Translations under genes and position numbers: made by a program
Notes under the pieces: model-generated
What the model was told of the DNA's origin: nothing
Databases searched by the model: none
Seen by the model: only the letters and a program-made list of their open reading frames with translations
Origin: an uncultured Albidiferax sp.
GTDB lineage: Bacteria; Pseudomonadota; Gammaproteobacteria; Burkholderiales; Burkholderiaceae_C
Direction of reading: 5' to 3'
NCBI GenBank assembly: GCA_963513125.1
Contig: CAUPPH010000001.1
Location: forward strand, 386,532 to 450,531
DNA length: 64,000 nucleotides
Shown here: in pieces, positions 3,517-15,679 of the stretch
Layout: every line of letters starts with the position of its first letter
Numbering within the stretch: position 1 is the stretch's first letter

Positions 3517-5247
3517 TCAGTGTGAATCGCGGGGCACGGCATCGCCACGGCAGCCCACCAAAAAGTCCATGTCGGCGCCCTGGTCGGCTTGCAGCACATG
3601 GCGGTGGTACAGGCGCACGTAGCCGGAGGCGGGCTCGGGCGGGGCCACCCAGGCCAGGCGGCGACGGGCCAATTCTTCGTCGCTGACATGCAGGTGCAGG
3701 CCGCGTCCCGCCACGTCCAGCTCGATCTCGTCGCCGTCTTGCACCAGGGCCAGCGGGCCACCGGCGGCGGCTTCGGGGGCCACGTGCAGCACCACGGTGC
3801 CAAAGGCCGTGCCGCTCATGCGCGCGTCCGAGATGCGCACCATGTCGGTCACGCCCTGCTGCAGCAGCTTGGGCGGCAGGCCCATATTGCCCACCTCGGC
3901 CATGCCGGGGTAACCCTTGGGGCCGCAGTTCTTGAGCACCATCACGCTGTTGGCGTCGATATCCAGGTCCGGATCCATGACGCGTTCTTTGTAGTGCTCG
4001 ATGTTCTCGAACACCACGGCCTTGCCCCGGTGCTGCAGCAGGCGGGCGGTGGCGGCAGACGGCTTGATCACCGCGCCCTGCGGTGCCAGGTTGCCGCGCA
4101 GCACGGCCAGGCCGCCCTGCTCCACCAAGGGCTGGCTCAGGGGGCGGATCACCTTGTCGTTGAAACACTCGGCATGCTCGACGTTTTGCGCCTGGGTGCG
4201 GTTGTTGACGGTGATGGCATCACCATGCAGCAAACCCGCTTCGAGCAGGCGCTTCATCACCACCGGCAGGCCACCGGCGTAGTAGAAGTCTTCCATCAGG
4301 TATTCGCCCGACGGCATGAGATTGACGATGGTGGGGATGTCGCGGCCCAGGCGGTCCCAGTCGTCCAGCGACAGCGGCACGCCCATGCGCCCGGCAATCG
4401 CAATCAGGTGGATGACGGCATTGGTGGAGCCACCGATGGCACCGCAGACGCGGATGGCGTTTTCAAAGGCTTCGCGGGTCAGCACCTGCGACAGGCGCAT
4501 GTCGCGCTCGACCATGTCCACAATCATGCGGCCCGAGCGCTGCGCCAGCTCCAGGCGGCGCGAGTCCACTGCGGGAATAGCGGCGTTGGTGGGCAAGGAC
4601 ACGCCCAGCGCCTCGACCATGCTGGCCATGGTGCTGGCCGTGCCCATCGTCATGCACACGCCGGCAGAGCGCGACATGCAGCTCTCGGCCTGCATGAACT
4701 GCGGCAGGGTCATCTTGCCTGCGTTCACAGCTTCGGAGAACTTCCACACGTGGGTGCCCGAGCCGATGGGCTCGCCACGGTAGTTGCCATTGAGCATCGC
4801 GCCGCCGGACACCACCAGCGTGGGCAAATCCACACTGGCAGCGCCCATCAACGTGGCGGGCGTGGTTTTGTCGCAGCCGGCCAGCAGCACCACGCCGTCC
4901 AGCGGGTGGGCGCGGATGGCTTCTTCCACGTCCATGCTGGCCAGGTTGCGGTACAGCATGGCGGTGGGGCGCATCAGGGTTTCGCCCAGCGACGATACCG
5001 GGAACTCCACCGCAATGCCACCGGCCTGCAGCACGCCGTGCTTCACCCGCTCTGCGATCTGGCGAAAGTGCTGGTTGCAGGGGGTGAGCTCGCTCCAGGT
5101 GTTGCAGATGCCGATGACCGGGCGGCCATCAAAGCTGTCGTCGGGCAGACCTTCGCTTTTCATCCAGCTGCGGTGGATGAAGTTGTCTTTGCTGGTGCCG
5201 CCAAACCAGTGCTGGGAACGGCGTTTTTTGGGGGATTCGGTGCTCAT
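3517..5247 (-). CDS. IlvD/Edd-family sugar-acid dehydratase (L-arabinonate/D-galactonate type)
   Basis: Start reassigned to MSTESPKK; CNTWSELTPCN, GCDKT, GGSTN and SDARMSGT motifs closely match AraC-type arabinonate dehydratases. Confidence 0.9.
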   Translation of the reverse strand: MSTESPKKRRSQHWFGGTSKDNFIHRSWMKSEGLPDDSFDGRPVIGICNTWSELTPCNQHFRQIAERVKHGVLQAGGIAVEFPVSSLGETLMRPTAMLYRNLASMDVEEAIRAHPLDGVVLLAGCDKTTPATLMGAASVDLPTLVVSGGAMLNGNYRGEPIGSGTHVWKFSEAVNAGKMTLPQFMQAESCMSRSAGVCMTMGTASTMASMVEALGVSLPTNAAIPAVDSRRLELAQRSGRMIVDMVERDMRLSQVLTREAFENAIRVCGAIGGSTNAVIHLIAIAGRMGVPLSLDDWDRLGRDIPTIVNLMPSGEYLMEDFYYAGGLPVVMKRLLEAGLLHGDAITVNNRTQAQNVEHAECFNDKVIRPLSQPLVEQGGLAVLRGNLAPQGAVIKPSAATARLLQHRGKAVVFENIEHYKERVMDPDLDIDANSVMVLKNCGPKGYPGMAEVGNMGLPPKLLQQGVTDMVRISDARMSGTAFGTVVLHVAPEAAAGGPLALVQDGDEIELDVAGRGLHLHVSDEELARRRLAWVAPPEPASGYVRLYHRHVLQADQGADMDFLVGCRGDAVPRDSH

Positions 5248-11472: not shown

Positions 11473-11530
11473 GCTATTGAATAAATAGCTGCTTGTGCTG
11501 GTGGAATAAGCGCAGGCAGCCTAAAACCTT
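11473..11530 (+). repeat. REP-like family 1 copy (intergenic)
   Basis: GCTATTGAATAAATAGCTGCTTGTGCTGGTGGAATAAGCGC. Confidence 0.9.
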
Positions 11531-12137: not shown

Positions 12138-12258
12138 ATTTTGAACTATGAGGGCAGTGCCGCCTAGCATGACACTTACCTTTTATTGGTGCAGTTGATG
12201 TTTAAATAAAAAAGAACTATCATTCACCAGGGGTGGAGGAAACCATCATGACTAAACC

Positions 12259-12543
12259 ATGCAACTACTTGGCCTCATCAAGCTCGACGATTTCAAGCGC
12301 ACACACGCTGATGCACGTGGGCCACTTGACGCTTGGCGCATTGAAACCGAGCAGGCCCGATGGACCGGCCCGCAAGATGTCAGGAACCGATACCCTAGCG
12401 CCAGCTTTCTAGCGGACAACAGAGTGATTTTTAACATCAAAGGCAACACCTACCGATTAGTCATCAAAGTCAAATACCAAAACGGATTGATCTTGATCGA
12501 GTGGGTTGGCACACATGCCGAGTACGACAAGCAGAAGTTCTAA
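12259..12543 (+). CDS. higB: HigB-family (RelE-fold) toxin
   Basis: W..PQDVR..YPSAS....NRVIFNIKGN.YRLV......WVGTHAEYD signature. Confidence 0.9.
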   Translation: MQLLGLIKLDDFKRTHADARGPLDAWRIETEQARWTGPQDVRNRYPSASFLADNRVIFNIKGNTYRLVIKVKYQNGLILIEWVGTHAEYDKQKF

Positions 12544-12572: not shown

Positions 12573-13814
12573 ATGAAGCAACAGGTGAAAGTGATCAAAA
12601 CGCAGCGTGATTACGATGCGGCGATCGTTCGTCTGTCAGCTTTGATGGATGAAGACATGGCGCCAGGCTCCAGCAAGGAAGCTGAACTGGAGTTGCTAGC
12701 TTTGGTCATTGAGTCTTACGAGCGCAGCAAAGTTGAACCCGTGGTTCCCGATCCCATTGAAGCGATTTTGTTTCGCATGGACCAGTTGGGACTCAAGAAG
12801 GTGGACATGGTGCCTTACATGGGGTCGCTGCCCAAGGTATCGGAGGTGTTGGCGCGTAAGCGGCCGCTCAACCTCGCAGCGATACGTAAGCTGCATCAGG
12901 GCTTGGGTATCCCGGCGGATGTTCTGCTGACCGCAACCGATGATGCGGTTGACCTGTCGGAGGAACTCCCCTACGACAAAGACAAGTTCCCCATCAAGGA
13001 AATGGTCAAACGCGGCTACTTCGAGGGCTTCCGGGGCACACTTCGAGAAGCCCGCGAGTGCAGCGAAGAATTGATCCGCTCCTTCATGCGCGGCTTCAAC
13101 GTAAACCCAGTTCAACCAGCACGACTACGTGCGCCAATGCACCAGAGCGGCAGCAGACTGATGGACGACTATGCCCTGCTAGCTTGGCATGTTGCTGTAC
13201 TCAAAAAGGCTCGCCAAATCAAGTTCAAGTCGGCCTACGTGAAAGGCAGCTTGACCGATGAACGCCTGAAAGAATTGGCACGCCTGTCTCGCTTCGAGCA
13301 AGGACCCCGTCTGGCTCAAGAGTTCTTGGCCGACATGGGCATCGCCCTGGTGTTCGAGAACCATTTCAACAAGACCTATCTCGATGGTGCTGCCATGTTC
13401 GATGGAGATCGACCGGTGGTAGCGTTGACATTGCGACACAACCGGCTCGATAACTTTTGGTTCGCCTTAATGCACGAGTTGGTGCACGTGCAGAAGCATT
13501 TACGTCCTGATAACTCCTTCATTGCCGACAACCTTGAAGACAAGATTCATCAGCAGTCCCAGGAGGAACGCGAGGCCGACGACGGTGCCCGAGAAATTCT
13601 GGTCCCACAAGCCGAATGGTTGGAGTCAGACTTAGGCGTTTCTCCCACGATGGATGCCGCAATAGCGTTGGCTGACAAGCTCCGCATCCATCCCACCATC
13701 GTGGCTGGGCGCGTGCGTTTTGAATCTGGCAACTGGCGCCTGCTCAGCAGCATCAAGGCTGAGGTTCGCTGCCAGTTTCTCGATCAACTTGAGGAGCCGG
13801 CGCAACCCAGTTGA
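12573..13814 (+). CDS. higA: HigA antitoxin fused to an ImmA/IrrE-family Zn metallopeptidase
   Basis: Start reassigned to MKQQVKVIKT; N-terminal HigA (YE...PDPIEAI.FRM, SEVL.RKRPLN) and C-terminal FWFALMHELVH HExxH with EREAD downstream. Confidence 0.88.
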   Translation: MKQQVKVIKTQRDYDAAIVRLSALMDEDMAPGSSKEAELELLALVIESYERSKVEPVVPDPIEAILFRMDQLGLKKVDMVPYMGSLPKVSEVLARKRPLNLAAIRKLHQGLGIPADVLLTATDDAVDLSEELPYDKDKFPIKEMVKRGYFEGFRGTLREARECSEELIRSFMRGFNVNPVQPARLRAPMHQSGSRLMDDYALLAWHVAVLKKARQIKFKSAYVKGSLTDERLKELARLSRFEQGPRLAQEFLADMGIALVFENHFNKTYLDGAAMFDGDRPVVALTLRHNRLDNFWFALMHELVHVQKHLRPDNSFIADNLEDKIHQQSQEEREADDGAREILVPQAEWLESDLGVSPTMDAAIALADKLRIHPTIVAGRVRFESGNWRLLSSIKAEVRCQFLDQLEEPAQPS

Positions 13815-13819
13815 TCAGC

Positions 13820-13857
13820 AAAGAAAAAAGCCCTGGAGTGCTCGAACACTCAAGGGC
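13820..13857 (-). terminator. Intrinsic terminator oriented for a minus-strand transcript
   Basis: Stem GCCCTGGAGTG/CACTCAAGGGC (13830-13857, one mismatch) with an A-tract at 13820-13829 that reads as a U-tract on the minus strand. Confidence 0.7.
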
Positions 13858-13922
13858 CTTTGGTGAGGTGAATAGGGGTCTACCAAAAAACCACCCATGC
13901 ACAACACGTCTTGGAGAAGACG
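13820..13922 (-). ncRNA. Candidate ~100-nt small RNA
   Basis: Extended -10-like TGATAAGAT (13927-13935, minus strand), 5' hairpin CGTCTT/AAGACG (13907-13922) and a U-tailed terminator; no minus-strand protein gene nearby needs this terminator. Confidence 0.4.
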
Positions 13923-13991: not shown

Positions 13992-14114
13992 ATGGCCTAC
14001 ACCCGTTGGAAGAGCGTTTTTGTGCGGGCATACGTCCGCTTCCGGTTTGGACGCCGGGAGCATGTTTGCAAACACTGGCGCTCACATCCCGGTCAGATGG
14101 AACTATTCGTCTGA
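13992..14114 (+). CDS. Basic/aromatic 40-aa microprotein MAYTRWKSVFVRAYVRFRFGRREHVCKHWRSHPGQMELFV
   Basis: Strong AAGGAG SD 5 nt before ATG; the ORF track over-extends it to a TTG at 13911. Confidence 0.65.
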   Translation: MAYTRWKSVFVRAYVRFRFGRREHVCKHWRSHPGQMELFV

Positions 14115-14187
14115 CCATCGATGGCAGAGGCCTTGTTCGCAAGGTATCTGCCACCTTCCTGCACTTGAACTTTGAAAGATATCCATC

Positions 14188-14340
14188 ATGGCAACCAAGA
14201 CCCCCAATGAGCAAACATCTGCTCGCGTCGCCTCTGCAGCATCCAAGCTATTGAGCAACCCCAAGACCCCGACCGCAGTGAGGTCGGTAGCGGCTTCGGC
14301 ACTGACCCAACGGCCTAGTGGCAAGCCAAAGGGTAAGTAA
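14188..14340 (+). CDS. Basic 50-aa microprotein MATKTPNEQTSARVASAASKLLSNPKTPTAVRSVAASALTQRPSGKPKGK
   Basis: Open ATG..TAA frame missed by the ORF track (<60 aa), followed by an intrinsic terminator; resembles recurrent small hypothetical proteins of mobile elements (from memory, unverified). Confidence 0.6.
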   Translation: MATKTPNEQTSARVASAASKLLSNPKTPTAVRSVAASALTQRPSGKPKGK

Positions 14341-14363
14341 CTTCACTGCTGCCCGGTTGTTCG

Positions 14364-14393
14364 TGAGCCCGCTTCATGCGGGCTCATTTATTT
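14364..14393 (+). terminator. Intrinsic terminator after the microprotein pair
   Basis: TGAGCCCGC-TTCAT-GCGGGCTCA 9-bp stem followed by TTTATTT. Confidence 0.75.
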
Positions 14394-14473: not shown

Positions 14474-15679
14474 TCAACCCGTTGAGCTTCGCCCCACCTT
14501 CCCCTTCCCAAACACATGCCCCCGCAACCGCGCCAAGAGCTTCTCCTTCTGCCCCTCCAAAATCTGGCTGCCCTCCACCAGCGCAGGCCAGGTGGCGTAG
14601 GCCTGGGCGACCGTATCGCGGACCAGGCGGGTGCAGGGTTGTTCGGCGATGCCTACGCGGTTGCAGAAGGCGCGCAGGGTGCGGGGGTTGAGGGTTCGGC
14701 CTAGCTCGGGCTCGGTGCCTTTGCCGCCGTCATTGCGGTACAGCGCCAGCGCGCTGCCCTGGCCGCTGTAGTAGGCAGACCAGGCGACGATGTCAAAGGC
14801 AGGGGACAGCACCGGGGTGTGGCTCTCGGGGTAGAGCAGGCAGAAGTTTTTCAGGTGCGCGTCATAGTTGCCCATGAGCTCGTTGATGGTGACCAGGCGC
14901 AGCAGTTCGTGTACGGCGCTCAGGCCCAGGCTGTCGGGGTAACGCAGCATCAAACCGGCCATGGCGGCGTAGGTGGCGCCGGTGTATTTGTTGCGCGGGT
15001 CCACGCCCAGCGCCTGGGCGAAGTCTTCGCAGTGGATACGTTTGGCGCCATCGCGGTCGAAGCGGGTCACGGCCAAAAAGTTGCTGCTGCCGCCCAGGGT
15101 GTAGCCGTGGGCAAAGTCCAGCTTGTCCAGCGGCACCAGCTTGTGTTCGCACACGTTGGCCCCGGCGGCCTGGGCCATGGACAGGCTGCGGTGTTCCAGC
15201 TCGGGCAGCTTGGCGCGGTCTACCTGGGGCAGCTTGCCGATGATGCGGGTTACGCCAGACCGCTTGCGGGCCACGTAACGGCCGCCCTGGGCGATCAGGC
15301 CCACCTTGGGCTGCATGCCAGAGATCGACACGCCCAGGGGCAGCGGGTCGGCGGTGACCGACATTTCCAGGGCATCGTTGTCTTGCGTGACCAGCCGGGC
15401 CAGGGCCTGGCGGTCCAGGTGGGCCGGTAGCGCCTTGACTGCGCCGGGCAGGTCCAGGCCGCAGGCGGCAAACGGGGCGAAGTGGTCGCCTTCGCGGCAG
15501 CCGCGCTCTTGCGCCAGCTGGGTGCGGAACACGCCCTCGGGCAGCATGTTCTGGAAGAAGTCGGGCAGACGGCCATCCGCGCCATTGAACACCGGCGCGG
15601 CAACGTCTTTCCACAGCGATGCCTGCTGGGCCGGGCCGCGGGCGCGCATGCTGACCGACAAAATCTCTTGCGCGGTCAT
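14474..15679 (-). CDS. Orphan HipA-like Ser/Thr kinase, N-terminus apparently shortened
   Basis: FFQNMLPEG (HipA-N), SISGMQPK P-loop, DAHLKNF and SPAFDI motifs; in-frame TAA four codons upstream of ATG; no hipB adjacent. Confidence 0.82.
   Translation of the reverse strand: MTAQEILSVSMRARGPAQQASLWKDVAAPVFNGADGRLPDFFQNMLPEGVFRTQLAQERGCREGDHFAPFAACGLDLPGAVKALPAHLDRQALARLVTQDNDALEMSVTADPLPLGVSISGMQPKVGLIAQGGRYVARKRSGVTRIIGKLPQVDRAKLPELEHRSLSMAQAAGANVCEHKLVPLDKLDFAHGYTLGGSSNFLAVTRFDRDGAKRIHCEDFAQALGVDPRNKYTGATYAAMAGLMLRYPDSLGLSAVHELLRLVTINELMGNYDAHLKNFCLLYPESHTPVLSPAFDIVAWSAYYSGQGSALALYRNDGGKGTEPELGRTLNPRTLRAFCNRVGIAEQPCTRLVRDTVAQAYATWPALVEGSQILEGQKEKLLARLRGHVFGKGKVGRSSTG

Follow-up and report, generated by a model that had tools for sequence, protein, structure and literature searches.

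A putatively mobile higB and higA-M78 peptidase gene pair in an uncultured Albidiferax sp. resembles the A-B core of PD-lambda-2-type systems

What might a HigA-type antitoxin domain be doing in one polypeptide with an ImmA/IrrE-type zinc peptidase, directly downstream of a higB toxin gene? This question is raised by a locus in a stretch of 64,000 nucleotides from the genome of an uncultured Albidiferax sp. (contig CAUPPH010000001.1; hereafter referred to as the window), whose fusion protein had been read, in a first-pass annotation made from the sequence, as an antitoxin that cleaves itself upon sensing single-stranded DNA (ssDNA) and thereby releases HigB. The two genes form an operon on the + strand, in which a gap of 29 nt separates higB from the fusion ORF and a Shine-Dalgarno sequence (GGAAGGA) lies 8 nt 5' of the ATG of the fusion gene, the start of which at position 12573 was confirmed by homologues of 413 aa. 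The features of the locus, in window coordinates, are as follows:

12195..12223, + strand: candidate sigma-70-like promoter, TTGATG-17-TATCAT, 36 nt 5' of higB, a consensus match only
12259..12543, + strand: higB, encoding a 94-aa HigB-family (PF09907) toxin of the RelE fold; the counterpart of PD-Lambda-2_A
12573..13814, + strand: gene for the fusion of a HigA-type HTH with an M78 (ImmA/IrrE-type) zinc peptidase, 413 aa; the counterpart of PD-Lambda-2_B
12573..12932, + strand: HigA-type domain (aa 1-120), an N-terminal helical hairpin and a five-helix XRE HTH, with a conserved KVSEVLxxKRPL motif
12933..13166, + strand: variable linker (aa 121-133), then a small conserved helical segment (FPxxEMxKRG), then a low-confidence loop (aa 184-192) with semi-conserved Arg residues
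13167..13814, + strand: M78 peptidase domain and short helical C-terminal tail (aa about 199-413), from Pfam PF06114 and Foldseek
13473..13487, + strand: HELVH zinc-binding/catalytic motif with H301, E302 and H305 (aa 301-305), read in the sequence and in the homologue alignment
13566..13568, + strand: E332 in an ExEA motif, invariant in both alignments and, by analogy with IrrE, the presumed third zinc ligand
13830..13858, no strand assigned: imperfect GC-rich hairpin just past the stop codon of the fusion gene, preceded by an A-run and followed by a short T-run, read by eye

The promoter candidate constitutes weak evidence, since one such element was found against 1.5 expected in shuffled sequences; a weak inverted repeat (12169-12187/12205-12223) overlaps it. 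The hairpin beyond the fusion gene is a possible bidirectional terminator, which was not called by the terminator scan; a GC-rich, hairpin-like stretch occupies a similar place on the Limnohabitans plasmid pTEGF4.

When the N-terminal 130 residues of the fusion protein were searched against Pfam and NCBIfam, no HTH family was matched. Since these profile libraries were silent, the HigA domain was identified by structure and by a sequence search of the PDB. In the latter, residues 53-115 aligned to the crystallised HigA of E. coli/Shigella (5ycl, 5ifg; E=0.011). An AF2 model of the fusion, built on 78 homologues (pLDDT 91.4, pTM 0.83), was compared with known structures by Foldseek, and its N-terminal 120 residues superposed on E. 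coli HigA (6kmq_B/6kml_B; 28-30% identity, prob 1.0). The same domain matches phrog_11202 and phrog_1373, and residues 6-119 share 54% identity with stand-alone HigA-like proteins of lambdoid phages, which indicates that the HigA domain is modular. With regard to the junction between the domains, the linker (aa 120-133) was unconserved in both homologue alignments. The loop at aa 184-192, modelled with a pLDDT below 50 and flanked by semi-conserved Arg residues, is possibly a (pseudo)substrate segment.

The C-terminal part of the fusion protein was assigned to the M78 peptidases by several approaches. Pfam Peptidase_M78 (PF06114) matched residues 259-351 with a borderline score (23.3 bits, compared to a cut-off of 22 bits), Foldseek placed this part of the model on CapP (7t5t) and PprI/IrrE (8sln and 3dte) with prob >=0.99, and PADLOC returned weak matches of the peptidase part to capP and RmrA. 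H301, E302, H305 and E332 were invariant in 78 of 78 homologues (37-69% identity; more than 15 phyla). In a second, independent set of 53 cluster representatives, H301, H305 and E332 were again invariant and E302 was present in at least 90%. Judging from these alignments, purifying selection on the active site of the peptidase is strict in every clade, and the invariant HExxH and Glu argue for catalysis by the fusion protein. A chance occurrence of HExxH was considered and ruled out by this invariance together with the fold. The resemblance to CapP and IrrE is confined to the peptidase core, with approximately 170 aligned columns and a target TM-score of 0.31-0.35. CapP and IrrE also carry a GAF-like C-terminal domain. 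Such a sensor domain is absent from the AF2 model of the fusion, in which the residues that follow the core, from around aa 352, form just four helices (about 60 aa) and nothing beta-rich, while an extra helical region of about 80 residues, which resembles nothing known, precedes the peptidase.

The partner gene, higB, encodes a product that matches Pfam HigB_toxin (PF09907) with E=1e-28 and aligns to E. coli K-12 HigB (5ifg/5ycl), shared motifs included. In particular, the motifs NRVxFNIKGNxYRL and GTHAEYD (R66, H86, Y89-type) are kept in the window HigB and in 72 of 80 partner genes. A literature search found no published catalytic residues for HigB proteins of PF09907; for this reason, we refer to these motifs as family-conserved and only infer a catalytic role for them. 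Thus, the composition of the fusion given in the first-pass annotation holds, well outside anything that chance would produce, both for the HigA HTH of about 120 aa joined to an ImmA/IrrE/CapP-type M78 peptidase, on which the ORF, Foldseek, Pfam and the identity to phage HigA proteins agree, and for the intact HELVH motif with its downstream Glu; an intact higB lies upstream.

Both genes were recognised by PADLOC as components of a known defence system. The higB product matched PD-Lambda-2_A (PDLC03981) with E=1.4e-46 over 94 of 94 positions, and the fusion matched PD-Lambda-2_B (PDLC03982) with E=1.5e-150, its residues 1-404 aligning with positions 1-398 of 402; furthermore, the window B protein shares 39% identity, over its full length, with the B protein of an E. 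coli three-gene locus. [quoted passage not shown] 2022, PMC9519451). In the same study, B alone was unexpectedly found to be toxic and A to rescue this toxicity (Fig. 5d, PMC9519451). This work, carried out in E. coli, is the sole experiment on the family (PMC9519451); our literature search turned up no experiments after 2022 that address self-cleavage or the mechanism of PD-lambda-2.

The C gene of PD-lambda-2 corresponds to Pfam Beta_protein (PF14350; P4 Beta protein), and we looked for it at several levels. The ORFs between positions 13815 and 14470, downstream of the fusion gene, gave no PADLOC match, so no C gene was called there, and a C-protein HMM run against the six frames of the whole window gave no match at E<=10. 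PDLC03983 and PF14350 were also absent from the 99%-complete genome, a weaker negative given that the control genomes gave no match either. Based on the profile matches, the locus is read as a PD-lambda-2-type A-B core that lacks the third gene, and as an ordinary member of a widespread family.

Of 8,000 candidates examined, at least 4,865 proteins fell into that family at E<=1e-3; almost all of those listed are about 413 aa long and annotated as 'ImmA/IrrE family metallo-endopeptidase' or 'antitoxin HigA'. Clusters at 50% identity numbered 6,571 at E<=1e-3 and 470 at E<=1e-30, and members of the family were found in at least 577 species genomes, spread over Pseudomonadota, Cyanobacteriota, Chloroflexota, Planctomycetota, Bacillota, candidate phyla radiation lineages and others. 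We then compared 84 related loci (80 genomic, 4 plasmid-borne); one was cut at a contig end, which left 83 that could be scored upstream. In 83 of 83, higB or a remnant thereof lay directly upstream on the same strand (a remnant only in one), and the stop and start codons of the pair often overlapped; the A-B pairing is near-obligate across many phyla. The exception is a Longimicrobiales locus, L076, in which B is full-length and the upstream HigB (4748-4993, +) is reduced to its N-terminal 38 or so residues.

A C gene or C remnant was present in 15 of the 84 loci. When the B proteins were arranged in a quick maximum-likelihood tree, the loci linked to C fell together in a group of 19 rows, while window B belonged to a 59-row group with zero loci with C, its nearest rows being an Azonexus MAG and an uncultured betaproteobacterium; the deep split of this tree had an SH-aLRT support of only 89%. 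Four of the three-gene loci also share a related, convergent ORF of about 210 aa just 3' of the Beta-protein gene (L029, 5905-6537, -; L030, 7208-7852, -; L052, 7020-7637, -; L072, 3751-4386, -).

The state of the HigB motifs differed between loci in a manner that bears on how the E. coli experiment should be read. In a proteobacterial three-gene clade (L035, L037, L050, L055, L069, L071 and L078), the A proteins are devoid of both motifs, the lengths checked among them being 86-95 aa. Similarly, two E. coli three-gene loci that we retrieved, L097 and L098, encode A proteins of 86-87 aa from which both motifs are gone. Eight other three-gene loci keep an intact HigB. The ECOR42 PD-lambda-2 system spans 2,625 bp, which is consistent with the short A type, as judged by span and not by sequence. 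The published result in which B is toxic and A neutralises it therefore most likely came from a degenerate HigB. In the window A protein and in the 72 of 80 loci, the retention of the motifs makes purifying selection on them evident, and HigB motifs are not what one would expect an inert inhibitor to have kept across phyla.

What, then, of the proposal that the fusion is a self-cleaving antitoxin? ImmA, IrrE and CapP each cut an XRE repressor with which they are partnered, and responsiveness to ssDNA is established for CapP and PprI. By extension, ssDNA arising from DNA damage or phage replication would prompt the M78 domain to cut its own HigA part, in cis or in trans, and free HigB with no need for Lon or Clp. 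Besides the precedent of the related proteases, the presence of the PprI-ssDNA structure (8sln) among the Foldseek matches, the intact zinc site, the intact HigB motifs in the window, and the flexible linker and disordered, Arg-containing loop are all compatible with it. Nor is it a new proposal: in 2009, Makarova, Wolf and Koonin described fusions of Xre with a COG2856 Zn-peptidase, located in operons with RelE and PIN toxins, drawing the analogy with the LexA autoprotease-repressor and predicting a more complex TA circuit (PMC2701414), and Matelska et al. suggested in 2017 that DUF955 may degrade the HTH domain of the same gene, resulting in toxin activation (PMC5499597). The pair is thus not new, and both its architecture class and the self-cleavage idea of the first-pass annotation were already in print. 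The E. coli data are, moreover, the reverse of what it had modelled, in that B itself is toxic in the absence of any HigB, which a pure suicide antitoxin does not predict, and the HigB-like A rescues (PMC9519451), yet they come from a clade with a degenerate HigB. As for the sequence and the model of the fusion, the linker shows neither conservation nor an evident cleavage motif, and the lack of a GAF-like or otherwise recognisable sensor domain leaves ssDNA sensing unsupported. Furthermore, the peptidase is equally conserved in the clade with dead HigB, where HigB release cannot be its purpose. We consider the scheme as a whole, and likewise self-cleavage of the fusion, to be quite improbable.

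The E. coli system suggests another reading, namely that B is the only toxin, acting through its protease or through its HTH on host targets, that A is a mere antitoxin and that any HigB RNase activity is irrelevant. It is backed by the toxicity experiment itself (Fig. 5d, PMC9519451), by the full-length identity of window B to its E. coli counterpart and by the full-length PADLOC matches of both genes. Against this, the A proteins of the window and of most loci keep HigB motifs under evident selection, while the E. coli-type A is shorter (86-88 aa) and motif-less, unlike that of the window, and we regard the reading as unlikely here. Alternatively, the pair might be an ordinary HigBA addiction or stress module whose M78-like domain is not proteolytic but serves for sensing or oligomerisation, like that of the HTH-DUF955 regulators PrpR and RamB. 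HTH-DUF955 fusions are known as transcription factors (mentioned in PMC5499597), and type II TA systems typically show such a gene order, such overlap and such plasmid locations; nevertheless, the HExxH and Glu are kept in the homologues examined (E302 in at least 90% of one set), which points to catalysis, and B is toxic by itself in E. coli (PMC9519451), so that we hold this explanation to be very unlikely.

The explanation that we favour, and that we place just on the probable side, is a horizontally acquired two-gene higB/higA-M78 module in which an RNase and a peptidase restrain one another. Through its HigA domain, the fusion would bind and neutralise HigB, as in E. coli HigBA, and would probably also auto-repress the operon; the complex would keep both enzymes silent, with bound HigB restraining the peptidase. 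A stress or phage cue that upset the complex would then free an mRNA-cleaving toxin together with a protease, leading to growth arrest or abortive infection. On this view, the peptidase more likely acts as an additional effector or regulator than as a simple switch by which the antitoxin destroys itself. Mutual restraint of the two enzymes is in line with the intact zinc site, the intact HigB motifs and the near-obligate pairing of A and B, as well as with the published toxicity of B and its neutralisation by A (Vassallo et al. 2022, Fig. 5d, PMC9519451). On the other hand, the restraint of B by A may not transfer to the two-gene clade because the E. coli data were obtained in a clade whose A has lost the HigB motifs. 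In addition, the toxicity seen on overexpression of B could be artefactual, brought about by too much repressor or protease, in S. pneumoniae stand-alone COG2856 proteins were not toxic (PMC4257102), and B without a complete A may be tolerated, judging by the Longimicrobiales locus.

An evolutionary extension of mutual restraint is offered more tentatively, as a possible but rather doubtful one. According to it, the two-gene clade would represent a reciprocal two-enzyme TA system, in which a fully active HigB RNase and an M78 protease, likewise active, keep one another inhibited within a single complex, and which would be ancestral. From this state, the E. coli-type PD-lambda-2 would have been derived by decay of HigB to a pure protease inhibitor and by recruitment of the P4 Beta protein as a phage sensor.

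In order to place the module in its genomic setting, we compared it with related genomes. It occurs in a single copy in the genome, and its neighbours are a GNAT acetyltransferase gene, a hipA remnant and a dehydrogenase gene. The GC content of the module is 0.52-0.55, compared to about 0.65 in the flanks, and its DNA was unmatched in all 15 same-genus genomes searched. Three of these 15 genomes keep both flanks (GNAT acetyltransferase and hipA) with other cargo between them. In one of the three, G005 (L094, G005:C19:2000-9700), a 1,048-aa N6_Mtase/Eco57I/TaqI_C gene resembling type IIG restriction-modification genes takes the place of the higB module; in G007 and G015, the flanks are unchanged and the interval from the GNAT gene to hipBA is longer. 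This interval is a variable spot. Within the taxonomic family, a homologue at E<=1e-30 was found in only 3 of 120 other genomes, and homologous pairs are carried by plasmids of Limnohabitans, Paraburkholderia, Acinetobacter and Deefgea. To judge from its low GC content, its patchy, island-like distribution and its plasmid copies, this is a mobile TA/defence-type module that was acquired horizontally. A prophage location was considered and rejected, as no phage structural genes lie nearby and the module sits in the variable spot between the GNAT gene and the hipA remnant.

Several further elements were observed around the module. The HipA-like kinase gene at 14474-15679 (-) is a remnant, in which about 457 bp are missing in comparison with same-genus genomes (96% DNA identity), namely hipB, the promoter region and the first 41-47 or so codons of hipA; its ORF of 401 aa, compared to 442 aa, matches Couple_hipA at profile positions 37-98 only. 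Between the fusion gene and this remnant, a 40-aa ORF rich in Arg and aromatic residues, served by an AAGGAG ribosome-binding site (13993-14115, +), has a counterpart of about 78% amino-acid identity downstream of the pair on the Limnohabitans plasmid pTEGF4 (L002, about 4398-4520), where overall DNA identity is about 67%; none of the other 83 loci has it next to the pair, and it gave no Pfam, PHROG or PADLOC match. It is followed by a 50-aa basic ORF (14188-14340, +) and a clean terminator (14363-14387). The 50-aa ORF matches phrog_5079 (unknown function, E=4e-11), and it has a weak relative just 3' of the C gene in L055 and a truncated copy after the 40-aa ORF in L002. On the other side of the module, a REP-like intergenic repeat of about 50 nt (11473-11526) lies between an enolase-superfamily gene and the GNAT gene; dozens of copies with 80-95% identity are present here and in every same-genus genome searched.

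In the source genome, the module is an ordinary accessory island gene pair. Its interest lies in the family, since pairs of HigB and HigA-peptidase are among the most widespread TA-like modules, with more than 4,800 near-full-length relatives found. The split in HigB motifs, which the two-gene clade and some of the three-gene loci have kept and the E. coli-type clade has lost, could explain in a testable way why the E. coli experiment gave its paradoxical result, and the two-gene clade is the place to ask whether RNase and protease are both effectors.

Compared to PD-lambda-2, an anti-phage system acting by abortive infection, the window locus has the same first two genes in the same order. 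The differences are that C (PF14350) is missing from the window locus, that its B falls in the group of rows free of C, and that its A keeps the HigB motifs which the E. coli-type A has lost. The Xre-COG2856 fusions with RelE and PIN toxins described in 2009 and 2017 belong to the same architecture class as the window fusion, and they were predicted to form three-component or fused TA systems whose protease inactivates the HTH antitoxin; those fusions were described computationally and mostly carry a canonical HTH_3 Xre domain, whereas the HTH of the window protein is of the E. coli HigA (YgjM) type. With E. coli K-12 HigBA (YgjN/YgjM), the locus has in common the toxin-first order, a PF09907 toxin with shared motifs and the HigA fold, that is, an N-terminal helical part and the HTH, while a peptidase is present only in the window fusion. 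The K-12 HigA is a protein of 138 aa without a peptidase, and cellular proteases are credited with degrading it. The neighbourhood of the module in the window showed no CBASS, ICE or radiation-response regulon. Finally, the ImmA/ImmR, IrrE(PprI)/DdrO and CapP/CapH pairs share with the window protein the M78 fold, the HExxH motif and Glu, and a functional link to an XRE-type HTH; the window fusion differs from IrrE and CapP in its lack of their GAF-like sensor domain, and from all of these pairs in that protease and repressor, which are separate proteins there, are here fused into one.
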